Source of the DNA: Psammoneis japonica | Lineage: Eukaryota | DNA: 64,000 nt | Assembly (NCBI GenBank): GCA_008632985.1 | Contig: QPGO01000125.1 | Coordinates: 62,001-126,000, forward strand | Direction of reading: 5' to 3' | Shown: in pieces, positions 5,721-59,607 of the stretch | How positions within the stretch are numbered: the first letter of the stretch is position 1 | How the letters are laid out: each line of letters opens with the position of its first letter | Translations under genes and position numbers: made by a program | The notes under the pieces: model-generated | The model's input: the letters and a program-made list of their open reading frames with translations, nothing else | The model's database searches: none | Told to the model about the DNA's origin: nothing

Positions 5721-8312
5721 TTCTAAATGCGTGCAGTCGTTGCGTTGTAGCGCGTCTCTTGCATGAATCAGGAAGCGACGAGAAAGCATGGAATGATGCT
5801 GAAAGAAAAACGAAGGCCAAGCAGAGTGCTCCACACGTGAAATGGATGTTCGATTCTGTTTGTCATGTAAATTCATCCCTGCAGCATGGCAGAGCCATGC
5901 CATCGCATCATTGGTTGGCAGATGCATGGCTCTGGCTGCTGGCTGGTGGCTGCGCTGGGAGATTTGCTCGCTTGCGTCAGCAAATGTGCACCGGCATGAG
6001 TTGGTCGTGCACGTGTGGGTTCGAAGGAACCGCGAAACTGGCCACACCCTGCAGGAGAACAGCTTTTGAAATTAGGGCATTGCAGTTGGCAAGTTGGAAC
6101 GTCGGAGCACAGGAGATTCGAAATGTGCTGCTGCAGCAAGGCAACTGATTGTTGATCAATTGGCGACAATGCAGCATGTTGGATGCACAGAAGTTTGTTG
6201 CAGTTTGTGTTCTGCGGCGCTCTTGGAAGAAAGTTTGCTGTGTGGCTGGTGGAAGATGAGAAGAGCTGCACAAAAGAACTTTTGTGAGGGATCACAGAGA
6301 GGGCAGCTCACCAAAATGCTGTGATTCTTGCCACTGATGCACAGGCACAAGTGTTGGCTGCCCTGCTCCTGTGCTGCTGCGTGAACAGAAGCATCTTCTG
6401 CACAGCACAGACAAGGGTTTCAAGCGAAAGCAAACAACCATCACAGAAGCAACAAAACACACACTGACAAGCCCAAAACAATTCATGGTCAAGTCCAGAA
6501 CAGCCGAGACATGAACATTTTGTGGCATTTTCTGTCAACTGTTGCATCGACAGCTTTCTCTGTCCCACTCACTCCAGCAGGCTTTCGACAGAGATGCGTT
6601 GTCGTGTCAAGGACAAACAATGCAAGTGGCCATCACAGAAGACCTTGTGCCTGCATCTGTGCTGTGCATGTGGCAACACTCCAGACTTGTCTTCTAAAAA
6701 CTTGCAAAATCTTGTCCAAACCAACTCCATTTTGTCAGCACTGGCTGTGCGCAGGGATCGGCAAGCTTGAGTTTGTGTGACTCCTGAGAGCCCCTCTCCA
6801 TCTTGTTGGTCCACCCAGTTCCTTCTGGAGGCTTGGTGCACTCGTCAAATTTGTCAAGTGCAGTCTTGTCATTTGGATCTGCGGCAGCTGCTGAGAGCTG
6901 CAACATGCCACACTTTTTCCCTCCATGCTCCACATCAACATGAAAAAGTGTGCATCATCCTGCAATCCAATCATCATGGGCCACAGAATTTGTGTGACAA
7001 GGTGCTCTCCAAGGTGGGTGGTTGAGCAGAGGCCAAGGGAGCAATGCCGGCCTCCAAACCGGCATCCTCCATGGGTGCATCATGTCAGAGCCAAACGCAG
7101 GCATGGAGATGTTCTTGATGTCCATGATGTTGCCAATGCTCATGTTGCCAGCACCATGAAAGATGGTTGTTTTGCACTGAAAAGCAAAAAACAGTGGCAC
7201 AAAGAGCAAGGGCAAGCTGGGGAACATGAGATGGGACAAAGGACAATCCAATGCACAACAGAGCAATGGTGTTGTGATGTGTGCTTGCCTGTTTGTTTGC
7301 CACTCCACTGGACTCCATCCTGCTGATGACAAAAACAGCAACACGGATTCTGTTGATGACAGTTGGTCACACCTGTCAAAATGCAAGAAATGCCAATGCA
7401 AGACGTGTTCCAGACACAGGTGGGAATCCGCGTGACATTGAGCCCATGGAATTCTGCGTGCGAGCTCCACAGCAAAATTGCAAGCAATGAAAATGTCAAT
7501 GATCACCAACAGAAAATGAGGCAATTTTGCAAATGCACAAACTCGTCCATCATTGAAGTGCATCATTTTTTGCTCAGCCAGCTACATTCTTCAGACATTG
7601 AAGAATGCAACTCTGTGGTGCATTGTTGTTTCTGCAAATTCGTCACACAAAATGTTTGGGGGGCTTCACAAAAACAGCGAGTCTGGACAATTTTTTTTTG
7701 GAATGTCACAAGCAGAAATGCACACGCAAAACATGTGACGGATGACAAAAATTGTTTGTGTCACACGTCAGCACTGCGAGCTCCCACCCAGGGAGGCTGG
7801 AACACGTTGCGACAGCAGGCGAGACAAGATGTGAAAAAACAATGCCAACACGCAGCAACAAACCAAACCAAGCCATCACAACACACCTTGCCATGTTGGC
7901 GATCACCCGGCATGGCATGGGGGGTGCCATCTGTTGCAATGACTTGGAACGGCGACGCTCCATCTGTTGTGTTGTTGGTGGTGGCCATGTTTCGCTGCAC
8001 ACGAAAAAAAAAATTGGGCACCTGTCGCTGTGGCAAACAAAGATTTAAAGAACACAACCATGTGTTCTCATCATGTCCGAACATCATTGTGCAATCAACA
8101 TCACAGCTCTGCCTGCAAGGTGTGGCTAGTTGCACGGTTGCATCGAACCCCGAACCCCAACGTGCGCGACCAACTAGCTGCCGGTAGCCCGGCTAACTTC
8201 AAATTTAACATAAGGGATTGGAGATGTTCATAAAAGATACGAACTATTGAAATTTCGAGCTCTCTCGAGTGCGTGTTTCGACTTGCTGAACACAACACAT
8301 GCGTGCAACACC

Positions 8313-29300: not shown

Positions 29301-32300
29301 ACACAGATTTTGCGCATGTCTTGCACACATCTCTCACACATTTTGCAAACATCTTGCACATGCATCTGGCACACATCTCACAAACATCTCACACGTGTCT
29401 GGCACACATCTTTCAAACACCTTGCACATGGTGTTGTCTGGCATGCATCTTGTGCACATCTCACAAACACCCCACACATGTCTTGCAAGCATCTTGCAAA
29501 CACCTTGCACACATCTGACTGACATCTCGCACATGCCTCACACAGATTTTGCACATGTCTTGCACATTTTGCAAACATCTTGCACATGTGTCTGGCACAT
29601 GTCTCACAAACATCTCACACGTGTCTTGCACACATTTCTCACACATCTTGCAAACACCTCGTGCATGTCTTGCGCACATCTTTTGCACATCTGGCACACA
29701 TCTTGTGTGCATCTCACACAAGGTCTGCAGGAAATCATGTTTTTGAGCAAAAAACAGAGAATCTGCTTGAGCTTCAATCATTTGCAATGCCAGCAGTGCA
29801 GCCACATGCACTTTTTCTGTGTGAGCTTGTGCATTTTTGACACAACTTTGACACAACTTTTGACACAAATCAAAGTTGTGCCACAGTTTCAAAAATGCAC
29901 ATCTCTGGGTGATTTTAGAATTCTTGCGAGACTTCCAGTGCAAACTCTGCGCAAAAAAACAAAGCCCGGGTGTGCATTTTGAAAGTTGTGCCGCACATTT
30001 TGAAGAATGTGTGCGCAGGTTCTTTCACATGCAGAAGTCCAGGAGTGCATTCCTGCACAGCACAAAAGTTGGGACATTTTCAATGTGAGCACATCCGGGT
30101 CTTTGCACAACTTTTTTGTCTCACACATTTTTTTGTGTCAAAAGTTGTGTCTAGAAATGTCTTTTCTGCAAGGTGGTGTTGGCAGCAAATTTGTCTTGTC
30201 CAACGGATTTTGTGCTGGCAGGCATGACTCACATCAATTTTGACATGCAGGTGGCAAACATGGCAATTTCCTGCAGACCCACACATCTTGCAAACAGCAC
30301 CTGCTCACACACATCTGGCACACATCTTGCAAACACATTGCACATGTCTTGCACACATCTCTCACACACATCTCACAAACACCTCCTCACACACATGTTG
30401 CAAAGATGTCACACATGTTTGGCACACATCTTGCACACAACTCATGCACACTTGCAAACATCTTGAACACATCTCAAAATCACCTGGCCAATGCCTCACA
30501 AACACTCCACACATGATGGTCAAACACCTTGCAACACATCTTGAAAATGGCCCACACACTTCTTTCACACCTCTTCACAAACATCTTCCAAACACCTCAC
30601 ACACATCTTGCACACATCTCACAAACACCTTTGGCACATTTTCACACATCTTGCACACACTTTGCACATGTTTCACGCACATTTTGTGCACATTTTGCAA
30701 GCACCTCACACACATCACACAAACACCTGGCACACATCTTGTGCACACAGAGTGCACGCTGTTTTGCAAACACCCTGCGCGCATGCTGCACACATCTTGC
30801 ACTCATCTTGCAAGTGCCTCACACAGGCTTTGTGCCCATCTCATGCATGTCTTGCACACATCTTGCAAACACCTTGCACATGTCTGGCAAACGTCTCACA
30901 CACATCTTGTGAACCCCTTTTGCAAACATGACTCATCTTGCAAACACCTTGCACATGTCTTGCACACATCTCACATGCGTTGTGCAAACATCTCACACAT
31001 CTCTCAAACACCTCAAAAGCACATCTTGCACACATCTTGCAAACACCTGGCACACATCTTCCACACGTTTTGTGAACACTTGCACACATCTCACACAAAC
31101 ACCTTGCACACATCTTGAACAAATTTGGCTGGCCGCACCTTGTTGTGAACCACACTCTCTAGAAACAGCACAAAGAACAAACAAAGCAGCTGCCACAATT
31201 GCATCTGTGAGACCATGACCAAAGCCTGCACGCATCTTGTGCACATTTTGCATTCACCTCGCACGTGGCTTGCACACATCTTGCAAACACCTCAAGCATG
31301 GCTCTTGTGCATGTCTTCCAAACATCTTGCCACCACCTCACACATGTCTTGCACACATCTTGAGCACAACGTTGCCTTGATGTGACCTCACACACAGCTT
31401 GCACAAATCTCACATGCATCTTGCAAATGCCACACACACCTCACACACAGCTTGCAAACACCTTGCACATGTCTTGTGCATGCCTCACACACATCTTGCA
31501 CTCATCTCACAAACACCTCACACACATCTTGCACTCATGCAGCACACACCTTGTGCACAACTCAAGCATGTCTTTTGCAAGCATCTTGAACATGTCTCAG
31601 TCAAACCATCTCACCAACATGTCACACATGTCTGGCACACTGCACACACATTTTGCACAAATCTTCTTGCAAACACCTTGCACACATCTCACAAACACCT
31701 TGCACACATCTTGCAAATGCCTTGCACATGTTTCACACACATCACAGAAACAAGTTTCACACATCTTGCTCGCGTCTCATGCACAACTCACACACACACA
31801 CACATCTCAAAAATGCCTTGAGCACATTTTGCGCACATTTTGCACACCTCACACATGTCTCGTGCACATCTCAGAAACACCTCACACACACATTTCACAC
31901 ATGTCTTGTGCACATCTCACAAACACCTCACAAATGCCCCACACACACCTTGCACACACCCAGCGCACATCTTGTGCACACCTGACAGACACATCCCACA
32001 CATCTTGTGTGCATCTGGGAAACACCTTGCACACATCTTGCAGTCATCTCACAAACACATCACACGTGCAATCATGCAAACATCTTGAGCAAGTTTTGCA
32101 CACATCTCACACACAGATCACAAAACACGTTGTGCACATCTCACAAACACCTTGCACATGCCTTGCACAAATCTTGCAAACACCTTGCAAACATTTTGCA
32201 CACATCTGGCACACATCTTTCAAACACCTTGCACATGGTCTTGTCTGGCATGCATCTTGTGCACATCTCACAAACACCCCACACATGTCTTGCAAACACC

Positions 32301-35300
32301 TTGCACACATCTGACCAACATCTCACACATGCCTCGCACAGATTTTGCACATGTCTTGCACACATCTCTCACACATTTTGCAAACATCTTGCGCATGTGT
32401 CTGGCACACATCTCACAAACATCTCACACGTGTCTTGCGCACATCTCTCACACATCTTGCAAACACCTCGTGCATGTCTTGCACACATCTTTTTCACATC
32501 TGGCACACATCTTGTGTGCATTTCACACAAAGTCTGCAGGAAATCAGGTTTTCAAGCAAAAAACAGAGAGTCTGTGTGAGTTTCAATCATTTGCAACACC
32601 AGCGGCACAGCCGTGCACACTTTTTCTATGCAAGCTTGTGCGCTTTTGACACAACTTTGCACAAATCAAAGTTGTGCCACAGTTTCAAAAATGCACATCT
32701 GGGTGATTTTAGAATTCTTGCGAGACTTCCAGTGCAAATTCTGCACAAAAAAACAAAACCCGGGTGTGCATTTTGAAAGTTGTGCCACACATTTTGAAAA
32801 ATGTGTGTGCGGGTTCTTTCACATGCAGAAGTCCAGGAGTGCATTCCTGCACAGCACAAAAGCTGGGACATTTTCAATTGAGCACATCCGGGTCTTTGCA
32901 CAACTTTTTTTTCTCACACATTTTTTGTGTCAAAAGTTGTGTCTAGAAATGTCTTTTCTGTGAGGTGGTGTTGGCAGCAAATTTGTCTTGTCCAACAGAT
33001 TTTGTGCTGCCAGGTGCAACTCACATCAATTTTGACATGCAGGTGGCAAACATGGCAATTTCCTGCAGACCCACACATCTTGCAAACAGCACCTCACACA
33101 CATGTGGCGCACATCTTGCAAACACATTGCACATGTCTTGCACACATCTCTCACACACATCTCACAAACACCTCCTCACACACATGTTGCAAAGACGTCA
33201 CACATGTTTGGCACACATCTTGCACACAACTCATGCACACTTGCAAACATCTTGAACACATCTCAAAATCACCTCACCAGCAATGCTGAAACATGCATTT
33301 TTGGTGATGCACAACTCAGCTTTTGCTGAAACATGCAGCAAAGGCAAGATGTCGTTCATTTCAGCAGATTGCCCGGATGGTGTTGAGCACATTTTGCACA
33401 CATCTTGCACACACCTCATTCACATCTCATGCACATTTTGCACACCTCTTCCAAATGCCTGAAACATCTCATGCGCACCTTGTGCACACCTTGTGCACCA
33501 CATCCAACAAAAACTTTGCACAACTGGCGCACATCTTGTGTGCGCTTTGCTCGCACATGTCTTGCAAGCACCTCACACCTCACACACACACACTGCACAC
33601 ATCTTGTGCACATCTTGCAAGCACCTCACACAGGTTTTGCACACATCTCATTCACACCTCACACAGCATCTTGCAAATGCCTTGCATGCATCTTGCACAG
33701 ATTGCACAACATCTCACACACACCTTTCATGCATCTCTCACATGTCCTGCACACATCTCACAAACACTTCACAGGTGTCTTGCGCACATCTCACAAACCC
33801 CTCACACATGTGCATCTTGCACATGTCTCATGCACATCTCCGACACATCTTGCAAACACCTCACACACTTCTCATGCACATCTCCCACACATCTTGCAAA
33901 CACTTCATGTGTGTCTCATGCACATCTTGCACACATTTTGCAAACACGTCGCACACTGCTGCTGCTGCTGACAGCATGACATTGCAAGAGAAAGAAAGAG
34001 CAACAGCATCCCATCCAGGGAGTGCTGAGGCTTTAAGGCTGCATGGGCACAGGAGGCTGTGCTTTTCAAGTCTCATGACAATGGGCTCACAAAGCCAGCA
34101 AGCCTTCAAAGCAGCCGCCAGCTTGACATTGATCAGAGCTTGCATCATTTTTGTTGGCTGCAGAGCAGCCGCACACTCTTGGGGGCATGCTGCCTGCAGT
34201 GGCTCCACACCCATTGCAGACATGGAGAACATTGCATCACTCAGGTCATCCCTGTGGTTGTTGTGTGTGGCATGATCAGCACCAGCGTGCCCGGCCCAAA
34301 TGTGCATGTGCAAACCCCCCGGCGCTGTGTTTCTGCCAGACAAAATCACAAAACACAGTTGACAACATGAGCTTTGTTTGCAGCAATCCATGGGATCAGC
34401 ACATGAGCTGATGCAGCAGTGAGGACAAGCCAACACCTTGTTGACAAGAGCAAGCAGTGATGATGGCACAACCAAGGCAAACTTGAGAACCGCCGCAGAG
34501 GGCCTGCAATCTTGGGAACACAACATCATGCGCGTGCACGGTCACAAGAGACTGCCCCAAACAGGGATCTCAAAAATGCCTTGAGCACATTTTGCACACA
34601 TCTTGAAAACACCTCACACATGTCTCATGCAGATCTCAGAGACACCTCATGCACATCTCACACATGTCTCATGCACACCTCAAAACCACCTCACAAACAT
34701 GACCCACACACCTCACGCACACTTGCCTCATCTTGAAAACACCTGACACATCTTGAGCACATCCAGCACACATCTTGCCTGCATCTTCTTGCAAATGCAT
34801 CATGTGCATGATCCTGCAAGCATCATGCAAACATCTTGTGTTTCTCTCAAGCACCTCATGCAATTCTTGTGCACATCTTGAACACAGACCACACACATGT
34901 TGCACAAATCATGCAAACAACTCACACATGTCTTGCACAAATCTCACAAACACCTTGCACAAATCTCGCACACATCTCACCACATCTCACACATCCACAC
35001 ACCTGCACATGCATCTTGCAAACACCCCACACACATCAAGCACGTCTTTCACAACTCTTGCAAACAAATCACACCCATCTTGCACACATCTTGCAACAAC
35101 ATCACACACCTGTTTTTTCACTTGTCTCAGACACATCACTCTCAAAGACAGATCACACACATCTCACACACACATTGCACACATCTTGCAAACACCTCAT
35201 GCATGTCTTGCACACATCTCACAAGCAACACCTCACACACATGTTGCACACATGATCTTGCAAACACCTGACACATGTCTTGCACACATCTCACAAACAC

Positions 35301-37300
35301 CTCGCGTGCATCACACAAACATGTGTTGCGATGTCTTGCACACACTTGACACACACACCTTGCACACAATTTGGGCACGCATCTTGTGCACATCTCACAA
35401 CCATCTCACAGCCATCTCACACATGTTTGGTGCACACCTCATGCACATCTTGCACACACCATGCAAACACCTCCCACACATCTCTCACACACATCTTGCA
35501 AACACCTCACACACATCATGAAAATGTGCTGCACACATCTCTTGCACACACTTGGCACACATCTTGCACACAGCTTGTGCACAACTCAAGGGCGTGTTTT
35601 TCAAATGTCTTGCACACATGTCTCACAACCACCTCGCACATGTCTGGCACACACCTTGTGCAAATCTTGTGTGCATCTTGCAAACACCTCACACCCATGA
35701 TTTTGTGCAGATCTTGGGCACATCTCAATCACATCTTGCAGACACTTTGCACAAGTCACACATGCACTCAAGTGGTGTCATGTTGAATCAAGTTGCCTTT
35801 GAACTTTTTGTTGGTGCCCCAGTGTGCAAAGTTCAAACATCTTGCACACATCTTGTGCAGCCCTTGCAAACACCTCACATGCAGCTCGCACACATCTTGC
35901 AAACACCTTGCGCATGATGTCTTGCACACATCTGGTGCACACATCTCAGAGTTGTGCAGGTCTCACACATGCCTCACACACAGCTCACAAACACCTTGCA
36001 AGCCTCTCCCCCATGCACCTTGGGCACATCTTGTGCTCATCTTGGGAATGACATCTCACAAGTGCCTTGCATGCATGCCCAGCACATGTCATCTTGAGCA
36101 CCTCTGACAGACACATCACACACATGTTGTGCACACCTTGCACCCATCTGACAAACACATCACATGCATGATCTTGCAAACACTGTGCAAACATCTTGCA
36201 CACATCTCTCAAACACTGCACACAAGCCTTTCGCACATCTCATGTGCACCCTGCACACAGATCAGGCACATGTTGTGCACATCTCACAAACACCCCCCCC
36301 ACACACAGCGTGTGGTGTGCACACCCCAGCTCTGCCTGTGTTTCTGCAAGACAAAATCACACAAAGCACAGTTGTGGTTGACAACAAGCACACAAGACAA
36401 TGACTCTGATTGAGTGAACAAACACTGATGCAGCAGCGAGGATGAGCCAACACCTTGTTGACAAGAGCAAGTCATGATGATGATGCAACCAGTGCAAACC
36501 AGGCCCTCTCTGTGACACAGAGGGCCTGCAATCTTGAGTGCACTGCGTTGTCATGCATGGCTGCAAGTGACTGCCCCAAAGAGGGACAGACCACTGCATC
36601 AGAGTTCACCCAGCAAAAGCAGAGTCTGTGCGTCGATCACGATGCATCTGCGCTGTTGGCAAAACCCTTGCCCCCCTTTGCAGCCTGCACCACTTCTGTC
36701 AGCAAGTCCACCTTGAGCCAACAGGTCTTCACCCCAACTGTCCTCTGAAGCACCCTGCTGATGTGGGAGGAACTCAATTTGCTCCAAGCTCCACACCTCC
36801 CAACGAACCCTCTGCGGGCCAGCAGCGCATTTCCATTGGTGTTGCAGCCCCCCTCCTTTTCCTCCTCATCCTGCACCTGGTTTGTCTGACCCTCCCAATC
36901 AAGTTGTGAAGGCTCACCTCAGCAGCACTCAGGACAAGATTCTTGGACCTGGTCTTTGAATGGCTCCTCCATCATCTCTGCTGTCAACCCCCCTCGTCCT
37001 TCTCCCTTTTGCCCTTGACCACCTTTGCAGCATTGGCCATCACTTTCATGTCTTCTTCTGTGGCCATTCTTGTGATGCTTCCTCCTCCATCCTGTCACCA
37101 CCTCCCAAGCCACCCTGGAAAGATCCTGCCGACTTTTCAAACTCCGACACCTCCTCCTTCACAGCTCTCGTCAATTTTCTCTCTCCTCTGCTCGACGAAC
37201 CTTGTTGCCCAAGCCAATGTCACCTGGTGGCAACTCTCTCCTGACCACTTCAGCTCCTCCTGTCACACCTCTGCTCCCAATCATGGGCCACCCAACTTTT
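23350..37300. other. TpA- and CpG-depleted block B (degenerate TE-like relics plus satellite)
   Basis: TA nearly absent for ~14 kb (none found by eye between ~34040 and ~37295). CG also scarce. Dense Cys/His-rich ORFs in all frames, almost all ending in TGA. Confidence 0.9.
27780..36300. repeat. Complex satellite of CACACATCTTGCAAACACCT-like monomers with a ~2.8-3.1 kb higher-order duplication
   Basis: Unique anchors recur: TCTCTAGAAACAGCACAAAGAAC at ~28051 and ~31157, and GTCTAGAAATGTC at ~30149 and ~32941. Internal ~240 bp tandem at 29160-29640. A further dispersed pair lies at ~34320-34520 and ~36335-36540. Confidence 0.9.
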
Positions 37301-42199: not shown

Positions 42200-45100
42200 A
42201 TTTAAGGGCATGGAATTGTTTTTGTGGCAATCTACAATCTGCTGCACACCACCTTCAGGAAGAGCAGCATTGCTGGAGGCACATGTGGTTGGCACGTTGG
42301 GGGACAAGGCATCATGTGATGGCAGTGCTCTGGTGGAAATACAGGTGGCACTTGTGATGGAAAGGCAAATGGCTGTGGGAGGAAGTGACCCGCGGGAGGG
42401 GGTGGAATCGTTGCAAGCCGGGACATCCTGCTGGCTGCAACAGCGGCGTGGCATCGACTGATTCCCAGGCAGCACGTGCAGGCAAGCTTCCTCCACTCAC
42501 ACTTTGTCAGCAACTCCTGGTGAGTGGAGAGAGGGAATGTGCTCTCATTGGTCATTCTCGTCCTCTCTGGCCTCTCGATTCTACCACCTTTTTACCGGCG
42601 ATGCTCTGCGGATGCGGCAGCTAGAGCAGATTGATGAGAAAACACACAGGGCCCTGCCATGTCACCCGTGTGACAAATTTACCTACGAGCTTGCTCTTGT
42701 CTGACAGAACTTGACGAACAATGGGTTGCCTTGGTGGTGTGCCCCACCGCATCAAGATTCGTTGTCGTCGTCAACAATGAAAATGCAAGAAGGCCACTTG
42801 GTCGGATTGCCCTGCTTTTTGAAGAGACTGCTGCAGACCGTGCCTGGAATGTGCTCATCCACCTTTTTTCTACATTTGCTGTGGCTGAGGTGCCGGAAAC
42901 GATTCAACTCACTTGCGGTGTCTGTTCAAATGACATTTCTCCGTTCAAAATTCCGCTTCGTGGGCCAAAAAGCACAGGATTTTTTTCACGGAATGACAAC
43001 AATGTTGAAAGCATTGACAACACCATGGCTGATGACTCATGTTGTTTTACATCGCAAAGCAGAAACTGAGATTGCAGGCTTTTGCATTTTCCCTGCTCTC
43101 GTCGCAAGCGCCGTGCACCAAATGACTTGAGTTTCGTGTGGCCGTGCGGAGCCAGACAGATCTCGCCACATCAACCAATCCGGAGAGCAACAATCCAGCA
43201 GAGATGTCACTGCAATCGGCATCGCTCACTGACGCGGTGAGCGTCTGGCAGAGCTGAGCAATGTTTGTGGTGCGAAAGCTGGAATTGTTTGTGATGCGAA
43301 AGCCAGAATCCAGCGCGGCTTCGAACGGGGCTTTCTCTCCAGCAGCCCCCCCCTGACTCACCTCGAAAGAAACTCTTTCCACTTCCCATGAGGAGTCATG
43401 GAAATGCGAGGCCATCCAGCACCTTTCCTGGCACCACCATTGCTGCCACGTTTGCTGGCCATGGTGAAGAGTGCGGCCGCAATGGCATTTGATGTGCTGT
43501 TTTGTTGGCCTTTTCTCTTTTAAAATTTGGATGCAACAGACACACATCGCATGCACGCAACAGTGCTGCTTTTCTAGAGATTGGCCATCCACAAAAGAGA
43601 ATCAATTTGTCATTGCGATTTTTCCAGAGGTCTAGAAAACTGGCAGTGCAGTCATTTTTCATCATCCGCGGAAAAATTGCGCGACACCCCCCAAAAATGC
43701 AGTGCCCAAAGCACAACTTTTGACCACACGTTCGCGCAGAACTCGCCAAGTCGAAAAACCACGAAAACACGCAGGTTTCTACGCAAATCCAGCACAAAAC
43801 GAATGGCAAAGCTCTGCCTCTTCCTCTTCACACACCGGGAAAAACACCTGCACATTTGATCACAAGGTCATTGCTGCATTCTTCTTTTCATCATTCAACT
43901 GAACCATTGTTGCCATGACATCGCAGACCTCCTTGTCATCTGCCGGCACTGAGATTGAGCAGCCGGAAACAATTGAATTTGCAACGGCTGCAGTTCAACA
44001 TCCTCAAGGGGAGGCAATGCGGAGAAAGAAGAATCACCGGGGTTCAACTGTCAGTGTGGTGCTGCCGTCACCAGATGAGCGCGACATGATGCCAGTTCGT
44101 CTTGGGGTGGAAGAGTGGACTCTTGTGAAACAGAAACAGCCAAAAGCTGGATCAGAAAAGAAAAAACAGTTCAGTCAACACGACTGCATTGTGGACCGGC
44201 CTGCCAGCAGCAACGGTCACACCAGCTCCTCTTGTCGACCTGGAGGCTCAATTTATCCTCATCACATTTTCTTCTCAAAAGTGAAATTGAGAGATTGCTG
44301 GAGCTTGAAGAATTTGAGTTTTGTGACAGAGAGAAGAAGAAGCAAATTTGCTGTCGGGAAAAGGCACTTGATAAATTCGACACACGAGAAACGAATCCCA
44401 GTGAGGATCCATTGATGTTTCTCCCTCCTGAGCCGGCACGAGATTGGAGCATTGGCGCCGGCATGCCGCTTGACAGATTCAAGGTTGTTTTGAAGCAGAG
44501 GCCCCCAGAGCCAGCTCATCCAGCGTCCCTGCTTTCATCAGATGATGAGTTGTCTGTGGATGATGAAGACATGCTGGATCATCATGAATCTCTGGAGGAT
44601 TGGAAGTCAGCGCCACGGGAAATCGATTGTGCAGTGCTTGACTTGCTCGTGGTTGCAAAGAGCATCGCGAAAGATGATGCCAGTGGTGGGGGGAGCCCTT
44701 CTTCAAATAAAAGGCAGCACACATCCTCTACAAGCCATGACGACCCTTTGCCAGATTGGTGCAAGAAACTGAGCGACGTTCGCGTTGCTCTCTTACAACC
44801 TGTGGTGAAGAGCACAAACAATGACTGTCTTCTCTTGGATGGCAAGCCCACTGTTGTAACCAACTTCTCTGTGTCGATTGGGGAAGACCCTGAGAGCTTC
44901 AAATTGGGTCACCTGCGACAGAGCGTTCTGAATCAGGCTGCTTCGCAAGCGAAGTGTCGTGGTAGACTTGGAATCAACTCCGCTCTGTTCTGCCAGACCT
45001 CAAAGGTTGACAAGCATGTGACAAGGCTCAACAGCACGGACCAAATGTGGAACTTTCTGGAGAACAAGTGCAGTGGTAAAAAGAACAACTGCAAGTGCCA

Positions 45101-47600
45101 ACTTCCATGCACACGTCGTTTGCCGTTTGCGATGGCATCATCTCTCACCATGACATTTTCTCATTGCTGCATTTTGTGATCTGTGGTTTTGAAGATGTGT
45201 CTGTGTTCCTTGCCCTTGGCTCAAAGCACCACAATGACGTCGACTGCGATGAGGAACAGTCGCAAATTGCCGATCCGTCGACACATGAGGACTCTCACCG
45301 GAGTGGCAACAACCAAGCTCTGTCTTCACCGGCAAAGACAGCATTCGACCCTGGTGCCAGCAACCGAAGACGTGGAAGGGCAGCTGAGAGCTCGCATTCT
45401 GTGAGCAGGGAGTGGGTTTTCAAACATCTCTGCATGGATGAGAACTCACCATGTCATCATGGATTCACCAATGAAATGCTTGCTGTGACGACGAGTTGTT
45501 TCAACGGCAAGAGGTTCCCACCGGAAAATCAACTCCCTTGGGAAAAATGGCCGTTGGGATGCGGTGAGCACCCAGAGATGACACAAATGCCTGCACATGA
45601 TGCACCGCACATGCAGAAGCAGATTGGTTCTGCCAAGCTAAAGAGGGGACAATGCCCTCTTGACGAAGCCACGGGGCTTCCTCCTTCTGGTTTAAAAACG
45701 ACACCAACAAAAGCTGCCGGCAGTGGCACAATCTTCTCTCCAACAACTGTCAACCCACTTGATCAACCAATCAGTGCCGGCCAGGGGATGGCAATTTTGG
45801 TGCAGTCGGATTGTCACTCGAAGCATGGGCTGGGAGCTGCAAGTGTCCCTGGAAGTTCGGTGGACCAATCTGCCGCCAAGCCAAAAACCAAGCCAGTGTT
45901 CACATTTCGTCGGAAGGTCGCAGATGAACAACATGTGAGTGAGACAGTTCTCATTGGGACGGAATGTGTGGATCAAAATGGAGCCTTGATTGACGCGGTG
46001 AAACACGTGGCCAATTCCAACAAAAGAGCATTTCATCGTCGTCCGGGGACAGAGATTCAGTTCATGCTTCGTTTGAGCAACAAAGATCCAATGGCATTTA
46101 CACTGGATGCTGCTCGCACGTGTAAGATTGCTGACCTTTTGGAGAGCACAGCAGGGGAAGCGTCACCATGTTTGTTTGATGTCGTCGAGATGGCGGAGGA
46201 CGTCGAGGAGGATCTAGAAGACGCAAGCTTTGATCAGCCGAGCTTGCAGAGATCAGTCAGAAATGCTTGTGCTGAGAATCCATTTGTTCACCCACTAGAA
46301 TTGAACAGTTTTCTACAGACATGTTGCACGCACCATTCTTCCCCAGCTGCTTCATCCTCATCCTCCTCTTCCGGAGGATCCTGGAAAAACGGAACGTTGC
46401 AGTGTCGAAAGATGTTGCGTGCCTTTGCTGGAGTGACGCTCATGAGAGCCTCCTGGTGGGCAGCCTCACAATCTGTTTTTGCCAGAACACGATTTCTCCT
46501 CAATGATGATTTGCATGAACAAAAGAAGTGCTCAATTGGGTTCAGATCAGGTGAGTGCCTTGCCGCAAACAGGATCTCAGCACCTGCGTTCCGCATGATC
46601 TCTGCAACCTCGGGATCGTGATGCTGAATCGCATTGTCCAAAATGACGAGAGAGTTTGGTTCCTGCTTGTCAAATTCACCAAGCTGAGGCACCACACACT
46701 CTGTCAACCATTCCTTAAACCGTTCTGTGTCAACAGTCCCTCTTGTGGGATCATTGTCATCTTTTCCTCGCTCTCGCAAAACAATGTCACAAGGTTCCAA
46801 GACAAAGCCATTGCAATTGGCGGCACCCATCAATGTGCGCCGCGTTTCCGCAGCATCAAATGCACGTGTAAATTCAGCTTTTTTGCCTTTTAATGCCCAG
46901 ATTCGACGACGACGGGCGCTCAAGCGGTCTTTTGCTGATTCGTCCAAAAACAAGGCCATCTCTGGGTTGGAAAGCAGGATCTCGAGAGTGTTTTGGCAGT
47001 CATCGTGCTCTTCTTGGCAACGTTGGGCTGCAATTTCCGTGACAACTTTGAGAGAGCAGTGCATTCGCTCTGTCAGAAGTCTCCACATTGACGTTGTCGC
47101 ACGTCTCACACCCGCAATTCTTTCGCACTCGTCCCGCATTTCGTCCAGATGGAACCCAGGGTGATCCTCAACGATGGATCTGACAATGTCAACCTGGTGG
47201 CATTCCCATGAGTGTGCTTCATACATTGTGTTTCACTTTCGCTTGCTCCTTTTCTTCAATTGCTCTTTTCTCCGTCGTGTCGCTTCGGGAACTTCCCCGA
47301 ATTGCTGACAATGGAGACACCAACGATGCAAAGTGGTTTCACTGATCTTCACAATGCTCGCACCTGTCACCTCTTCCAGAATGCAATCAAGAGGCTTGTC
47401 CTCAAATGGCCCAACCCTTGCAATCAAATGGCCAACAAGTGTCTCTTCCAAACGAAGCTGTCCGAGTGGACTTGCATGATTGCACCCTGCTGCTTCAACT
47501 TGAGGAATGAGCTCCGAGAAGACAAGGACCGCGACGATCAAGGCAAGAACGACTTCCAGCAACATCTTTTCGGTTTGCTGCAGCTTTTCTTCCAACGTTG
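42200..47600. other. TpA-depleted block C with CpG largely retained
   Basis: TA is rare while CG remains common (e.g. 46800-47150). TA returns at ~47610, still inside the element. Confidence 0.85.
43915..46280 (+). pseudogene. Degenerate second (cargo) gene inside the Tc1/mariner element, function unknown
   Basis: Overlapping long + strand ORFs (43915-44415, 44115-45179, 45095 onward) with protein-like composition and an acidic C-terminus (EMAEDVEEDLED). Convergent with the transposase; almost no Tyr. Confidence 0.5.
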
Positions 47601-47646
47601 CAATGTGGAATAACATGTGACGCAATGCTGCCATACAACGCGACAC
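46288..47646 (-). pseudogene. DD34E transposase (Tc1/IS630 type) interrupted by one in-frame TGA at 47233-47235
   Basis: HTH-like ISETTLHRW..., then PGFHLDE, FLDES, ILDNA...H and HSPDLNPIE (34 residues between the second D and the E). ORFs 47233..47646 and 46288..47226 are in the same frame. Confidence 0.9.
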
Positions 47647-50111: not shown

Positions 50112-50459
50112 TAACCGCCCAATAGTTTCATACTGAATATTGACTTCTACACCCACTAGGCGTCTCATATTATTACTTTTTGAAAGCATTTTGTAGATTT
50201 CATATCATTATTTTTGCCTCATGCGGCTTTGTTTTTGCAAAGATGGGAAATGGGAATGACAGGTGTTGTCGTGTCGAAAATAGTCGGTGTCAAGATCGCG
50301 AATCGGGAAGCAGATGCGGGAGTGATGGCGGAGTTCTTTTCCCGCGCAAACTAAAAAATCCAAAGGCCTTTTACAGTATTCGAACATCGTGCTGATGTCA
50401 TCATTGAGGCGAGGCGCGCGTTTCTCTTTTCTTTGGTCTTTGGGCGAGCGGGGCGGGAT

Positions 50460-52870
50460 GGAGGCCTTTCCTCCGACGACCTGCCTCTCGCAGATCCCAT
50501 GCATCCCACGACTTTCTAGAGAAGCACAAGAGCCACAGTGCAGTTCCCACTGAAGTGCACAATGCTGTTGATGCAGTCATGACTGCCGCTTGCCACAGCT
50601 TGAAAGATTGTGCTGCTGGTTCTGACTCTTGCAAGACTTCAAGAATCAACAGCATGGCAGAGTGCCCAGGCACCCGATGGGACAAGGTGGACGACAGTCG
50701 AAAGCGAGCACAGGAAATTGAGGAGAGCAAGGATCTTTTCAAAGTTTGACCAAGGAAGAAATGGAGTGACCGTGTGGTGTGCGATCAAGCTCAGCTTTGT
50801 GTGCTTGGATTTTGCCACTCAGTCAAAAGCAAGAAGAGGATCTTGTGTCGATGTGCAGAGTCTCAATGGAGTTCACAAACTGAAGGATCCAACAATGGGA
50901 AAAGTTGTCACTCCTCCAGCTTGAGCATGGAATGATGCAACTCTTGAGAGCCAATTTGATGCATTTCAAAAATCGGGCGTGTGTCAGACGTGGCTGCTGC
51001 GCACCACACCCCCTGCGCGCATGACCCATTTGAACATTCTTTTTGCCTTGCTGAAGACTGGACTGGAGGAGTGCATGAAATCATTGAAGAAAGTGTTGAG
51101 CAGTCTAGGTGTTGAAAAGCAAACAGAAAATTGCACTTGCAACTCACACGCTCAAATGAGAGAGGATGAAGATGATGGGCCCGGTGCTGACAACATCTTT
51201 TTGTTGCCAGGAACAAAGCACAAACAACTTGTCCGAGCATCATGCTGCCCGGCAAAGGAGGAGCCAATGCTCTGCACTGAGGTTGAAGGCCATCTACCAA
51301 AGCCAATCCCTTGGAAATGAACACACAGGAACTGTCAGAGTTGTGAAGTCAAAAAGATGAAGCTGCAAGAGTGCAAAGCACTCGCCAAGCATGACATTGA
51401 GATCACCACAAAGGAGTGGTTGCCACCAAGAGCTGGGACAAATGCAAAAGGGAAACAGAACACACAGACAGAACCTGACAGATGTCAAGCTCCCAGTGAA
51501 AGTGGGCGTCTCATGCAGCGCATTGACACACATGCCTTTGCCCTTGAGGAGCCACTGATCTTAGAGATGACTTCTCCACAATGTGCAATCTTTGAGCCCC
51601 CCTGACCAACAATTGCTCTGTGGATGCCCACCCCATCCTCTGCACATTTGCTTCATTGCACTTGCCAAGGACAATTGCAGTGAAGCACAATGGCGTGGAC
51701 AAGAAGTGGTGAGCAAACAAATGCAACGTCTGGCACTTTTTTGGCAAAATGATGTCAAAAGGGAAGAAGAACAACTGCGTCTTCCACAATGCAAGCCTTC
51801 TAGAGATTGTTCAGCATTGCAAATGCCAACTCAAGTGCAGCAGTGTTGACTTGATGTGAGTGACAGTGTGGACCAACAAGTGTGGGCCTCAATGCAAGTG
51901 CAGCCAAAACTTTTTGAGAAATGCAAGATTTGCAAGCACTGTGAAAGGGGTTGCAGCAAAACTCGCCAGCTTGCCCAGAAATGCCATTTCAAAGGTGCAT
52001 GGAATGCAGCAGGGAAGGTGGTGAAGTGCTGCATGTGGCATGTGGAGCTCCGCAGAGTGAGATTGCCCACAGCATTTGAGTGCTTCAAAGCGATGTGACA
52101 AGAGCTCGGGAAATGCCAAACTTGTGACCAACTGGAACGCCCTTGAAGCATCCAAGCATCCTGATGTCCTTGCAAAGAAAACATTCATGGTGTCCAGAAG
52201 ATTTCACGAACATGCAACTGAAAAGAAAGAGCAGTTTGAGCTGTTGCAAAATGAACTCAAGAACATTGCATTTGCTGACCATGAAAATGCACCTCAAGGA
52301 ACCCGAGTCAAGGACACCCAGAAACTTCATCAAGTGCCCAGCTTTCTCAATCTGAAGCCACAGGACCCAAGCATGTGGAAGATCCTTGCAGCAAAAATGC
52401 CTTGTTCATGCCTTTGTTGTCAAAAGAAAGTGCAAGAGACCTGTCTGATCAAGCATGTCACAGATTCAAAGGCGCATGCTGGGTGAGGGAACAAATCGAC
52501 AACTCAGCAAAAACAGCAGAATTGCAAGGGCAGTTCAAGACATGCTTGCCACAACTTGCTGAGGTGTTTGGCATGAGTGACGTCACCAAGAAAATGATCC
52601 AGGACAAGCTCAGACTGCTTGGATTCAGGCCTCAAACACAAGGTTGCACAATGTCTTGTTGGCCACATCTCTGCTCCGGAAATGCAGATGATTTGCACCT
52701 GCTGCTTGCTGAAAATTGCACTGTTGTGGATGCTGACATGCACAATGATGAGAACAAAGACATGGTTTGGATGGTGTTGGAGGCAAAGGAGGCAGATGCC
52801 ATGGTGCAGACAACAAACTTGATGTCATTGATTGTTTTTTTCAGCGGGTCAAATGAGCGGTGCTGAGGGC
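50460..52870 (+). mobile_element. Degenerate DNA-transposon transposase relic, Sola2-like
   Basis: VTVWTNKCGPQCKCSQNF (~51860-51915) and AQKCHFKGAWNAAGKVVK (~51970-52030) resemble the WxDxCxxQYK and HGKGxxDGxGxxVK motifs. A Cys-rich region lies upstream. Many stops and frameshifts; superfamily assignment is from memory. Confidence 0.5.
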
Positions 52871-55199
52871 ACCCCAGGTGTTTTTTTTTGCACTCATGAC
52901 TCAAAGCTAAAAACAAAAACAAAATTTCACTGAAACGTTGCCCTCTTCAACTCCTGATTGTGGTGGGTGTCTGGGTGGTCAACGCATGAACTCACAATGA
53001 AGAGTGCTCCCAGCCCATCCTTTGTTGGCCCTCAGAGTCATGGCAGTGAGTGGGTGTGGTGTGCAAAATTTTGGCAGATGGACAACCAGCATGGATTTGT
53101 TGATTCTTTCAGCTGCGCATGTGACATTCAGTGAATTCAATTTTGCATGCCGATGGTCAACAGTCATTTCTCAATGACTTTGGAAGTTGTTGACAATGCT
53201 GTGATGATCATTGTCATGTGTTGCAAGCTCTGTCAAGTTGTCCCAGTCTTTCAAAGAATTCCCCAAACCCTCCATGTGTCAACTGCAGTGCTGTTGGGTC
53301 CCTGGGGGTTGTTCACATCAGGAAAGAAAATTTCCCAGGCTGCTGTTTGCATTCAAGATTGGAGCCGCAACCTGTGGTGAAGACTTGGTTTGACAGGTCA
53401 TTGCTGGGCGCTGCTCAAAGAGCATGATGGTGTGCAATCTCATCACAGCAATGCTCCCCTGTGTGCTCATCTTGAGCTTGCAGGTCTTCTTCAGCATGTT
53501 TTTGTTTCCTCCTTGTGTGGCTCCATTGATTGGCCAACCAGCTCTTGTCTTTCCTTCTTGGGGTGCACTGCAGGCTTCTTCTTGCTGTCAAAGCTGATCT
53601 CTTCCCAGCTGCTCTGTCAATGCTGTTGCTTTTGCACAATTGCCAGAATTGAAGTGTTGTCCCATGCAGAAGCTGGCATTCTCTTGGGTTGCTTTTGCAT
53701 GCTGCAAAGGCTTCAGCTTGCCCCACTGCTTGCTTTCTGTTCAGCCGCCTTGGCCAAGTGCGTGTGTCTCTTTTCTCTGGCTCTCACAACAACAGATGCA
53801 TGAACTCCAGTGCCATGTCACACCTGACTGGCAACAAACAACTGGTCAGTCATCACAGCTGAACTGACTTTTCTGTCACCTGCTCCTTTGCTGCTCTCAC
53901 ACAGAGCTGGTGTGCTTGTGTCAACTCCCGCTGCTGCCATTGCAGCAGAGACATGACCTGCAAAGACTCAACTCTGGCTGCCAAATGAATGCCGGCAGCT
54001 TTGATGCAGCAAATGAAGTTCCAGCTGGATTGGACCAATGGACAGCATGCCTCCACTTCATTGTTGCAGAAAAGCTCAACGCAATGCCACTCTGCCACCT
54101 GCCAACCCATTGCTTCACCAGCATTGTGCCCGCCACTTTCAGCAGTCTCATCTGACAAAGAGCTGACATCATCTGCATTTGGAGCCATCAAATTCTCCTT
54201 GATGTCTTGAGTCAGCTTCCTGATTTCTTGATCTAAGTGGCTCAACCTGGGCCCTCGATCATCAGCCCAGAGACAAAAAAAAAAACTCCAGTTTCTTGCA
54301 AAGCTTCAGCCAAACAATCAAGTCCTCACCTGCGTTCCAGATTGGTGCATCAAAAAAGGCTTTCAAAGTCGTCGCGACTATTTTCCCGAAAAAGTTCCTG
54401 AAAGAATTCATCCATGTCGCTGCACTCTCCCGCCTCAGTCCAGATTTTCGCGACTCGGTTCATTGTCGCGCAAAATAATTTAAGGGCCTCACTGTCCCCC
54501 GCCAACCGCCCACTCTCTAGGATGCCATCAAGAGCAGTGAGCCGGTCCTCATCCATTTGCAAGTCCTCGGGGGGATCAGAACTTAGAAATGCAGCTTGAA
54601 GAGGAACAGCCGACCCATCAATTTCCTCAAACTTCAGCCTGTGATCCTCCAGACTCTGCATCTTCAAGAATTTAAAGAAAAGAGAACCCTTGTCTCGGCT
54701 GTGTGATTTCAGCATTTTCTTTGCCCAATGAAGAGGCAAAGAGGAAAGAGGATTGGGCTCAGCAAATGAAAATGCAGACCTGCATGAAGTGGCAAAGTGG
54801 CAAGCATTCCATGCAGTCTTGCTTTCTTTCTTTCCCTGCACTCCTTCCTGTTCTGACTTCCTTGTTCAGACTTCTCCATTTCAACAATGAAAGCCAACCC
54901 CCTTGAACTTCACCTGAGTGGACATGATGGCAACCATCAGCTGAACTGTGAGCAAGCTGCAATGCAGTGGTGGGATTGACGGTGCTGTTGTTTTGTGCTC
55001 TCATGTTTGTTCTCTTTGTTCATGGTTGGGGAGCGGGGATCAATCCCTTGGGTTTGTTGGTCATCTCATTTGGATGGGAGTGATTTTGAGTTGGAATTTG
55101 GACAAGGGTGCAAATCGTGTGCATGTTTGGTCATGCCGGTGTGCTCGTGCATCTTGTCCAACAGAGAAATTTGTCATTGGCAACATGATTGCATGTGCT

Positions 55200-57500
55200 G
55201 CATCCACACACCAAAAAAGTCACCCAGCTCCTCCACAAGCTCCCTGAGCTTGCTTTGTGTCTTCTGTGTGGTCTTTTTTGAACTCTCAATCTCCAGCTCA
55301 TGAGTGTCTTTGTTGAGCTGCTCACTTTGTCCCTGACATTGGAGCCACTGCTCCTGGTGGTGTTCTGGACAGTGATTGCTGGCTGTCACTCTCTGCCCTC
55401 CTCTTCTGTGGCCTTGGCAGAGCTCCAAAACAACTGTGCTGGAACAGCCGGTGCATCCACTCTTTGGGTTTGGTTGGATTTGCAAAATTTCAAACATGCT
55501 GTGGAGAGAATCAGGCACCCAGAGGCAGTGCGCTCCTCTGATGGGGGTGTTGGAGTTGACAGCTGCTTTGGAGTGAGCCAAGCACACTTGTCTCTTTTGC
55601 TTGTTCACCTCTCACCCACCAGCCTCATCTTTTTTCTCTCACCACCACTGTTCTTGTTTTCATTTGTGGTTGCAGCTCCACATTTTGAGCCACAATTTTC
55701 AGCACCATTTCCCCTTGGATGTGTCTCATCATCTTTGTTGGGCATGGATTTGTGGCTGAATCTGCCATCTGCCATTGTTCTTTTTGAGCAGTTTCTGGGT
55801 GAGCATGCTCTTTGTGCTCCTCCAGCACCAGGAGTGGACCATTTTGAAAAATGTCTTGATGGTGCATTGTCATTCCCACACAGAAAGCAGACATCCATCA
55901 AGTTGTGAGCCACACTTTCATGACAGCAAGTGGCGGGGCTCCTCTGCCACAAAACAAAACAAAAGAGCTTGTCCCTTTGCACAATCTTTTGTTGACATTG
56001 GTGACAGATGTTCTCAAACAGAGCAACTGGCATTTCCATCACCATCACACTTGCCACTCTTGTCAGTTTCATTGGTTCAGATTTTGTGTTTGGCGCGGTG
56101 CTCCTTCTGCTTTCACACAAACCACATGACTTGCACTGCAACTCTGACCCCATCTGTCCTGTGAAAACCACCTCTGACCCCAATTTCCCAACACTCTTTC
56201 ATGTGAGTCATCAATCGATTGACCTCATGCACATCAAGCACGGGGGATGACACATGAAAACCATGCCACCCAACACCATGTCAACTTTTCCATTGATTCC
56301 CATGGCTCACATCATCCGACTCTGCCAACGAATGACCGCTGTGTGAGGACAATCCCTCCTCATGTGCCCAACTTTGTTGTGCTTCCAGCACACATCTTCT
56401 TCTTGTCATTCTGTGCAAAACTCATGCCCTCAGGTTTCTTGTTGGTCCCATGCCTGTCCAACACCTGCAATGCCTCCTCAGCTGAATTGGGGTGCATGTC
56501 AACCCCAGCCAGCATGAGCTGCCAATGTGGGTCTTTCAAGATGCATTGACAATCCTTGGCAGCATCCACTGGCTTCACTGCTGATGACTTGTTCCTCTCT
56601 TTGCTCCAGACATCATCAACATCCTTGTTGAACCCATCTTCTTTCTTGGCCATTTTTTCTGGGATGATCCTGCCATTTCAACCTTGCTCACAAACTGGCT
56701 GCAATGGCCTTGAAAAAGTGTTTCTCCTTTGTCTTGACAAATGAGCACCAACTGCTTCCAAGCCTCAACCCCCACCAGGACATGTGTTCTCATTTGCGTT
56801 GGCTTGAGAATGCTCAGTGGTGCCACCACATCCAACTCCTTTGTGGCTCTTGCAAACTCCACCACTCTTTCAAGCTTGTCATGATTGGCCTTCGTGCATT
56901 GCCCCACAATCATGTTCAATGCCTTTGCCTTCTGCGTCTTGTAGATTGAGCTCTGCTTCACATGGTGACCACACTTTTTGCCCCAGATTGCCTTGTCTTT
57001 CTCCAATGTGGTGTCTCCCAATGCATGATCCAGCTCTCCCAGCATGCTCTCCTGCCTCACAGATGCCAGTGCTTGCATCTCTGGCCTGAAGGTTCTTCTG
57101 ATGTGCTCGCCACCAGCATCATGCACCCACTTCTTCAGCTCTTTTGCCCATCTTTTCCCGGACTTGCATTGGAGTTCCATGGCTTGCCAACTGATGCAAA
57201 CTCTGTCTTGCTGACCCTGAGATGACCTTGCCCCACCCTTTTTTAGCAGACCCTCAACAGCTTCTTTAACAGCAAGGCCCTCCAGAGACCATTTCTTTCC
57301 CTCATCCAGCCAGCTTGCTTGCTGCAATGTGCCAACATGAGGCACACCTTTGGTTTCTTGTTGACCTCCTGGCCCTCTCCTTTTGTTTCCTGTTGACTCC
57401 CCAGCCCTTGTCTGCAGATTCCTTTTTGCTTTCCAGCCCTCACACTCTGTGGATTTCTCTCAACTTCCCAGCCCTTGTTCTGTGGATTCCTCTTGACTTC
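55200..57500 (-). mobile_element. Degenerate Ty1/copia (CoDi-like) LTR retrotransposon gag(-pol) relic
   Basis: KAKALNMIVGQCTKANHDKLE...DVVAPLSILK and LAGVDMHPNSAEEALQVLDRH match the diatom copia gag patterns (LIxGQCxxxMxxKLE...DxxxLLxxIK; GxDxYPxxxxxAxxxLxxY). No LTRs identified. Confidence 0.65.
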
Positions 57501-59607
57501 TTAGCCCTCAAATGACGCCACTTTTTTGAATGTTGTGCCATGACTTTTTGGCTTCTGCGTTGGAGCTTTTTGTGGCTTGTCAACTGGCGCACATTTGGCA
57601 TCACCATCTCCTGCTCTCTGTGTGGTTTGCAAACACATTGGCTGATGCCGCTGGCTGTCATTGCTGTGTTGGCTGGGTGCAGAAGCCAAAAAGCAAGCAC
57701 AAGACCTGCAACTCAATCCAAGTTGTGAGTGCAAACTTGCCATGTTGTCTGCAATTGTCAGCATGTCTTACACTGCAACTCTGTCTGTCTGTTCTGCAAA
57801 AACTGCCTCTGACCCCAATGTCCCAACATGATGATGGTGCAGCATGTGACAACCATCATTTTTTTGAGTGTGTGCCATGGCCAGAGAGGTGTGGTTGACA
57901 AGATGCTCTCCTTGGGAGCTGCACTCAGATTGAGCATCAAAATTTGAAAGACTGCAAGAGCAAACCACTCAAGCGAACCTCTGCAAATGCACACACATTT
58001 TCTGGCTCTTGGATGGAAATTGTGAGCCTGACACAGATGATGAAAAATGTGCAGCAGCTTCAGCCCCAATGAGCCCCATGCCCATCTCCATGAACAAGCA
58101 GCAGCAGGGAAAAGGCAGGTGCAAATGTTCTCAATCAAATGATGGCAACACCACATCTGCAGAGTTTGCTGGTGGAAAACCCAGAAAGATGAACACAAAA
58201 GCTCTGAAGGAAAGGCAAGAAGGAGAAGAAGAAAAATTCTTGGAAAAAAGAAGTGCTTAAAAGGAATGACAAGAAGGGCTTGTTGAAGAAACTGCAAGAG
58301 CTTGAAATCAAGCACGAGAAAGAACCATTTTAAAGAAACAGCAAGAGTTTGACAAACAGCAACAGAAGGAGTTGTCAAAATGACAACAAGAGCATGAAGA
58401 TGAGTTTGAGAAAGAAGAGAAGAACAACAAGGACTTGTTGAAGAAATGGCCTGCCAGAGCTTGAAAAGAAGCATGAGAACAATGTGCAGAAAGAACATGA
58501 AAAGTGGCAAGGTCACAAAAAAAAAGAGAAGCAGTGGAAGCAGCAGCAGTGGCAGCAGCAACGGCAGCAGCAACAACCATTGCCATGGCTGTGACAGCAG
58601 GCATCATTTTGCTGAAATGGCAGCTCCAAAAAGAGAAGAAAGCAACACATGGAGGAGTGAAAAATGCTTTCTGAGTTTGAACAACCAGCTGTTCAGTGTG
58701 CAAAGCTGATGACAACAATCAAGGTGGTGAGCTGCCAGGAGGCAAAACAACTGAGCACCAATTTGAGCCAGAATTCAACAAGTTTGTGGAATGGCAGCTC
58801 AAGCAGTTTTTTTGAGCAAGTGCAGAGGCAACAGGAGTCATTTTAAAGAAGGTGTCTTTGCAAGCACATCCAGGTGGTGTTCCCTTGGAGCTCTGGAGAA
58901 ATGCCGCTTTTGCTGGGTGGAAGTGCAGCAGCACTGAAAACACAGATTTTGTGTTTTGTTTTCATTTGGTTTCTTGCACAGGCCCTCAACTCCACCCCCA
59001 TCCCATCTTCTGTGTTTTTTCCATTTAAACTGTGGCACCACAGTCTCCAGATAATGAGGCAGTCTCTGCAACTGGCCCACCTTTTGAAGGCGATCTGTTG
59101 ACAACAAAATTGCACTTGCTCTTTAGACGCAAAGCTCGCCATGACGGCATCTGCCATTGAAATCGCCATTCCTTTGGTCTAAACTGGGAAAATTGTCGAT
59201 TGCACCCCCATTTTTAGCAATCACATCGATCTGTGGATGTCTTTGAGCGCGACACGAATGGCATGGCAAGATTAGATTGAGAGCTGTCGAACGACACAAA
59301 CTCTTCCCAAGGCCACCATCATGAAAGGCGATCCCACACCTTCATGTCGGTTTCTTGCATTCAAAGATCACAGATCTGTCAGGTTCATAGATTTGGGGGG
59401 CTGACGTCGTTATTTCGGCGCAAATATTTTTAGCTTTTATCATAGAAGTAATTGGTTAGGACTATCTCGAACGCTCCAGTGCGTAACTGTCTGTCAAATG
59501 GTGTGAATCAAGCCGCCTTGGATGTGTTTGCTTGCAGCGCCGACTCTTGTTACGTTGCAACGGCCTAACTGCTGTAAAGTAGCATATAAAAATAAGTAAA
59601 AAGAATA

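Follow-up and report, generated by a model that had tools for sequence, protein, structure and literature searches.

We analysed a 64,000-nt stretch of the genome of the diatom Psammoneis japonica (G000 C124:62001-126000 of a 91 Mb assembly), hereafter called the window, in which the dinucleotide TpA has been almost entirely removed from four blocks of repeat DNA. The window carries the host genes for Rcd1, a kinase, a TLDc protein, an FMO and an aldehyde dehydrogenase, and the observed/expected ratio (o/e) of TpA in the surrounding DNA is mostly 0.5-0.8. In the four blocks, A to D, TpA o/e falls at sharp edges to near 0 (0.00-0.1) and TG and CA are raised. The bounds of the blocks were set by hidden Markov model (HMM) segmentation, and depletion was read from the o/e profile. 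The blocks consist of repeats, namely a DDE_3 transposase, a satellite and dispersed relics, and within the window TpA loss is restricted to this foreign or repeat DNA, the genes being spared. The 11-nt-based satellite in block B has almost no TA or CG, indicating that satellites are targets too. A Pfam scan of 38 of the 42 listed open reading frames (ORFs) of block D gave no credible match; the ORF at 56575-57459, likewise without a Pfam match, resembles a copia gag by eye. Two stretches of ~740 nt that are 71% identical (window 38876-41304) lie in TA-normal host DNA, and the normal TA content of this old duplication indicates that it was not targeted.

Table 1. TA-depleted blocks, their repeats and the residual TA sites of block D (window positions; residual TA given as YTAR/mixed/RTAY)
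Feature	Position	Strand	Remarks
Block A, TA-depleted	3465..8126	.	Residual 13/11/0
Block B, TA- and CG-depleted	23359..37299	.	Residual 12/5/0
Satellite of block B, 11-nt-based, CA-rich	~27800-36200		Strong strand skew; TA and CG nearly nil
Block C, TA-depleted, CG mostly retained	42234..47610	.	Residual 10/19/2
DDE_3 (Tc1/mariner-type) transposase frame, block C	46288..47232	-	Pfam PF13358, E 1e-17; 1 Tyr in 314 aa
Block D core, TA- and CG-depleted nest of repeat relics	50378..59025	.	21 TA/8648 nt (HMM segmentation); TA low until ~59350
Dispersed repeat, unclassified, block D	50507..52971	.	Relatives on G000 C110 (83%), C2, C188, C6; no Pfam match
Short multi-copy repeat, block D	53016..53400	.	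Copies 75-83% identical, many contigs
Multi-copy repeat relic, block D	56127..57830	-	57 genome matches; contains ORF 56575-57459
YTAR sites, block D (first part)	50517, 51106, 51562, 51801, 52908, 54234, 54481, 54518, 54584, 54673, 57244
YTAR sites, block D (rest)	57267, 57502, 58258, 58331, 58844, 59026, 59124, 59180, 59215, 59273
Mixed sites, block D	51295, 54379, 54476, 56942, 57769, 59052

The TA sites that remain in block D are biased in their flanks. Between 50390 and 59350 there are 27, of which 21 have a 5′ pyrimidine and a 3′ purine (YTAR: TTAG 7, TTAA 7, CTAG 4, CTAA 3), 6 are mixed (ATAA 2; CTAC, CTAT, GTAG and TTAC 1 each) and none has the converse arrangement, RTAY. This agrees well with the original prediction, which had counted by eye about 24 sites (about 18 YTAR, about 6 mixed, no RTAY) and had cited coordinates that are right within 2 nt. 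The host DNA of the window has 277 YTAR, 756 mixed and 390 RTAY among 1423 TA (Fisher p 1.8e-10 versus block D), and the NT and AN dinucleotide frequencies of block D itself lead one to expect 9.5, 13.0 and 4.4 (p 1.7e-5). The bias therefore stays after the normalization of NTAN frequencies that had been proposed as its check, and the scarcity of RTAY and the excess of YTAR in block D are confirmed as real. That the other blocks share the bias was true of A and B and only weakly so of C, which taken singly is not significant (p 0.16); the four blocks pooled have 51 YTAR, 40 mixed and 2 RTAY (93 TA), and 28 loci elsewhere that belong to a block D repeat family have 34, 23 and 0 (n=57). The YTAR motif was borne out, while the full signature proved to be wider, extending over six bases, and strand-resolved. 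YYTARR accounts for 15 of the 27 residual TA in block D vs 70 of the 1423 host TA; among YTAR sites alone the figures are 15/21 vs 70/277 (p 3e-5).

The loss of TA was measured directly in young repeat copies from elsewhere in the genome, which were gathered through DDE_3, PiggyBac and DDE_Tnp_4 searches and then aligned. The set kept had 39 copies in 13 families. Families F, G, H, U and V were left out of the fits (more diverged, with a heavy load of CpG decay or transversions, or tandem-like), and L014, a 99.5% copy of L011, was excluded from the transition/transversion counts and some later counts. The copies are ~95% identical and differ chiefly by TA/TG, TA/CA and TG/CA, indicating that an ancestral TA was resolved separately in each copy. 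At the 1410 visible TA-origin sites TA changed to TG or CA, with 815 transitions vs 21 transversions. It was retained in 367 of 1287 copy-states at RTAY (29%), 968 of 2116 at mixed sites (46%) and 496 of 754 at YTAR (66%), which upholds the order of loss RTAY > mixed > YTAR that had been proposed from the residue. At mixed sites, 388 changes fell on the A that is followed by a pyrimidine vs 167 on the other A, and the strand of the altered A is thereby resolved. Tc1/mariner, PiggyBac and Harbinger-type DNA transposons and the satellite were all affected.

Adenines outside TA were changed at a low level. In two pairs of less- and more-mutated copies, changes occurred at 66/180 and 89/214 TA, 10/269 and 11/254 AA, and 2/248 and 2/136 GA; the excess of TA over AA was ~10-fold for pairs and 27-fold for singletons. 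The non-TA A>G changes followed the order AA > GA and shared the bias toward a pyrimidine at +1 (AAY 45/4995 vs AAR 7/6419), CA>CG (C at -1) being inseparable from CpG decay. Partly mutated copies were patchy when L141 was compared with L143 and L067 with L075, and in L141 TA was intact over one of its halves and gone from the other, which suggests domain edges within single elements.

Flank effects were estimated by a likelihood model with exposure fitted per copy and per 600 nt and with a correction for invisible sites; the 16-context fit used 1242 of the 1410 sites (those with polymorphic flanks were dropped) and the extended fit used 1409. A strand-specific model of positions -2 and +1 relative to the altered A (6 parameters) was best on the 1242 sites (negative log likelihood 2470.8), whereas models with +1 only (2539.1), with -2 only (2719.3) or with a duplex rate and 50:50 direction (9 parameters; 2510.4) were poorer. 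Single-strand rates of the -2/+1 contexts spanned a ~13-fold range, from CTAA (0.18) to ATAT (2.38). Positions -3 and +2 contributed clearly beyond these two, and effects farther out were small though nominally significant and were considered untrustworthy. The rate for the A of each strand is the product of the weights at -3 (A 1.51, C 0.84, G 1.27, T 0.62), -2 (A 1.63, C 0.88, G 1.08, T 0.65), +1 (A 0.50, C 1.79, G 0.59, T 1.89) and +2 (A 0.69, C 1.41, G 0.88, T 1.16). When families were bootstrapped, the ratios between purines and pyrimidines at -3, -2, +1 and +2 were 1.9, 1.8, 3.4 (pyrimidine over purine, 2.9-4.1) and 1.6, with every confidence interval (CI) above 1.3, and the four-position weights were reproduced in each of two halves of the family set. 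Thus RR-TA-YY is lost earliest and YY-TA-RR latest. The weights are near-palindromic, the order A>G>C>T at -2 mirroring T>C>G>A at +1 and -3 roughly mirroring +2, which suggests that access is set by the local duplex and not by a single-stranded tRNA-loop motif.

These weights, applied out of sample to block D from a host-like start, predicted 22.2 YTAR, 4.8 mixed and 0.1 RTAY vs the observed 21, 6 and 0 (Spearman -0.93 across ten contexts), and the context preference can thus serve as a fingerprint of the mutator, as had been proposed. Fitted by block, A, B and D conformed to survival and C to a steady state of gain and loss, and gag-like loci were intermediate. The word "surviving" in the original prediction was only partly apt. 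Among 18 residual TA of block D with an aligned relative, TA was present in any relative at 6 and absent at 12, in weak alignments to relatives that are 69-83% identical and with 8 sites resting on a single relative. The short-read contigs of run X1 have CA at sites 51295 and 51562 and a new CTAG at 55440. The 12 absences and the two CA indicate that the residue consists partly of newcomers. The residue of old blocks is therefore a mixture of survivors in slow contexts and new TA that has passed through the same filter, which barely alters the class counts. Six single-copy-depth contigs of run X1 (window 45525-56604) had 12 differences from the assembly in 9583 nt, all of them TA/TG/CA/CG transitions inside TA-poor blocks and in both directions, and a seventh (57720-60500) had 0. 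Ongoing mutation, strain difference and assembly error would account for these differences alike, which are only suggestive of activity.

The two strands were changed about equally, and TA changes showed no strand coordination at distances from 3 to 4000 nt (same direction 0.47-0.51); the per-copy strand bias was in slight excess (sum z2 61 on 39 copies). That TAY are the tyrosine codons, as the original prediction had remarked, reflects a consequence, both strands and non-coding repeats being affected. At TATA, 63 of 89 cases ended as TGTG or CACA vs 47% expected from sequential changes (p 9e-6), with no excess in family B (16 vs 14). A non-TA A at -2 was now G in 21/412 cases when the same strand had changed, in 1/462 when the opposite strand had changed and in 4/412 with TA intact; over nine families this co-conversion occurred at 14/166 AATA and 5/204 GATA. 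Only 31 of 2423 invariant RATG were converted, and ATG is therefore not just another hot spot. Apart from an A at -2, which at times is converted together with the TA hit on its own strand in one event, the strands are thus hit independently.

The loss of TA was not locally coupled to the loss of CG, the odds ratio being ~2 at every range from 2 to 400 nt. CpG loss had a weak parallel flank trend (RCGY 134/935, mixed 243/2181, YCGR 107/1137; 14% vs 9%). Young transposon families had lost ~10% of CpG per copy where most TA was gone, so that TA loss ran far ahead of CpG loss, and block C showed the same order.

The process at TpA is repeat-confined, post-insertion, DNA-level and transition-only, with a six-base preference: after insertion, repeat DNA receives A:T>G:C transitions at TpA on either strand. 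A putative deaminase of adenine in duplex repeat DNA would have about an even chance of being the mutator. The candidate enzyme would be brought to silenced repeat chromatin, where it would deaminate adenine in duplex DNA to hypoxanthine, and replication would fix the change as G. It is predicted to read T at -1 almost strictly, with A as a weak second; the flanks may set the ease of duplex opening or base flipping, and hence access, and an occasional second edit may follow in the same binding event. More tentatively, and at somewhat less than even chances, we propose a dedicated genome-defence editor of diatoms, a natural double-stranded DNA (dsDNA) adenine deaminase with an RR-TA-YY preference and occasional ATA/TATA double hits, outside the substrate rules of TadA/ADAT2 and ADAR and possibly shared with Bigelowiella.

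Several results weigh against a duplex adenine deaminase or against a simple survival filter. The same spectrum arises whether A or the paired T is altered, and sequence alone cannot distinguish the two; the tandem hits and the weak activity at AA are also compatible with an error-prone polymerase. The genome has 9 PF00383 matches, of housekeeping type and named by eye save one TadA-like. The second of two A_deamin (ADAR/ADAT1-fold) genes (C79:344558-345390, L158; its paralogue is on C40) is conserved across many diatoms. With one exposure for all four blocks the model over-predicts YTAR (77.5/15.4/0.2 vs the observed 51/40/2), and block C fits a steady state of gain and loss better than pure survival. 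The copies are partly non-independent and site-level p-values are accordingly optimistic, and CG loss is only a proxy for silencing or methylation. None of the deaminases stands out. L158 is a lead and not evidence; closely related proteins from many diatoms, both centric and pennate, have PF02137 as their sole domain. A dCMP deaminase locus occurs twice, on C41 and C317 (L115, L116; 99% identical), possibly as a haplotig.

The strongest alternative, which we nevertheless regard as unlikely, is misinsertion of G opposite template T by a Y-family polymerase resembling Pol iota or Pol eta, during repair of heterochromatin in very short patches. Pol iota inserts G opposite T more commonly than A (PMC3031609), and Pol eta produces WA>WG in gap filling (PMC11507097), as stated in the available parts of these articles, to which statements cited by PMC number below are likewise limited. 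A search of the literature, as far as it was available, yielded no usable flank spectrum for dG:T misinsertion by Pol iota. The genome has a Pol iota-like gene (C22:252628-253293, L148; best PDB matches Pol iota, E 2e-26), a Pol eta gene on C18 and a further eta/iota-like gene on C19, making five Y-family loci with the REV1-like and Pol kappa-like ones, the latter two named by eye. Possession of such genes is unspecific. The status of AA as second-best target with its +1 pyrimidine bias, together with the tandem hits, favours a polymerase; the 10- to 27-fold excess of TA over AA, the near absence of transversions, the lack of strand-coordinated patches and the lack of local coupling to CpG deamination speak against it.

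It is less probable still that the process acts on the T of TpA. Oxidised or O4-alkylated T mispairs with G, and if T were so modified in repeats the predicted spectrum would be formally identical, the preference reading R-T-A from the side of T; the parallel flank trend of CpG loss fits this as well. We found no precedent for a T modification specific to TpA and no Tet_JBP match in the genome, the latter being weak evidence given that control genomes are equally silent.

Marginally lower again we place ADAT2/3, of the TadA family, acting on DNA as a second occupation, as proposed for Bigelowiella natans. The strict T at -1, the pure A>G change and the fast +1 C agree with such an enzyme, and an ADAT2-like gene is present on C26. 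The TadA motif, however, is UACGA (PMC8052359), whereas here G at +2 has a weight of 0.88 (CI 0.78-1.05) and is not favoured, T at +1 matches or exceeds C in rate, A at +3 has a weight of only 1.09, and A is the best flank at -2; the resemblance to UAC(G) suggested by the original prediction was thus not borne out. Fungal Tad2/3 mRNA editing favours A or G at +1 (PMC11156358), the cold class here, and adenine base editors (ABEs) work best after T and least well after A or G (PMC8989541), whereas AA is the second target here. The near-palindromic weights also speak against ADAT2/3, though a cofactor or the DNA substrate could shift its preference.

Very improbable is that the YTAR excess is due solely to TA being created with a bias (C>T at CAG/CAA) or to errors of assembly. 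The newcomers in the residue would fit, but context-dependent loss was measured directly in young copies, equal gain without such loss predicts 6.6/14.4/6.1 for block D, and the short-read contigs agree with the TA-poor sequence. As a sole cause this is refuted, and new TA still contributes in old blocks. We give scarcely any credence to the idea that element RNA was hyper-edited by an ADAR-type enzyme and the edits then fixed through reverse transcription, in spite of the A>G change and the two A_deamin genes: both strands are affected about equally and without coordination, the UAG preferred by ADAR (PMC10661471) is a cold context here (+1 G), the satellite is affected as well, and for DNA transposons RNA editing is refuted because they have no RNA intermediate.

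The six-base strand-resolved signature provides a direct test for any candidate mutator, which must reproduce RR-TA-YY >> YY-TA-RR, TA >> AA > GA and the same-strand ATA double hits; it already weighs against the simple form of the ADAT2 hypothesis. The flank rates also allow repeat copies to be ranked by exposure. A natural dsDNA adenine editor, if it exists, would be relevant to the biology of genome defence and to base editing.

The comparison of signatures from transposon alignments, which the original prediction had called for, gave poor matches to both TadA/ABE and Pol eta. The process resembles the WA signature of Pol eta (somatic hypermutation, SBS9) and Pol iota in its order TA > AA > GA and in A>G, and differs in being much stricter for TA, with transversions nearly nil and no strand coordination over patch lengths; gap filling by Pol eta would be strand-coordinated and near deaminated C, which is not what was found, and its signature fits poorly. 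It is like TadA, ADAT2-ADAT3 and ABEs in A>G, T(U) at -1, bystander edits and an acceptable C at +1, and unlike them in the unfavoured G at +2, a +1 T as hot as C, cold +1 purines, A as second-best at -1 and near-palindromic flanks. Repeat-induced point mutation (RIP) of ascomycetes also consists of repeat-confined, dinucleotide-specific transitions that wreck transposons. The polarity of RIP is C>T, which creates TpA, and it proceeds in strand-coordinated rounds, whereas here TpA is removed and there is no strand coordination.

The closest known system is that of B. natans, in which TpA-only A:T>G:C hypermutation was measured de novo in integrated nucleocytoplasmic large DNA virus (NCLDV) and virophage DNA, the raised de novo rate being confined to some lines, and an ADAT2 deaminase was proposed (Mettrop et al., 10.64898/2026.01.13.699255; comparisons here are limited to the available part of this preprint). 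Our literature search, in which subscription papers were thinly covered, found no TpA hypermutation in diatoms and no flank signature, only this preprint. A word search of its main text gave no instance of "flank", "context", "trinucleotide" or "diatom", and it offers no analysis of flanks, trinucleotides or tandem hits, although information on flanks could lie in Fig. 2B and Table S2. The two systems share TA>TG/CA on both strands, confinement to foreign or repeat DNA and long-term TpA depletion, including in DDE and reverse transcriptase sequences. They differ in that B. natans belongs to Rhizaria and the host here is a stramenopile, in which the process is near saturation over transposons and satellites and CpG is also lost. 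If the 231 B. natans mutations carry the same weights, the process would be common to Rhizaria and stramenopiles. TpA hypermutation itself is already known from Bigelowiella; as far as the preprint text goes, the flank-resolved, strand-resolved signature has no counterpart there.

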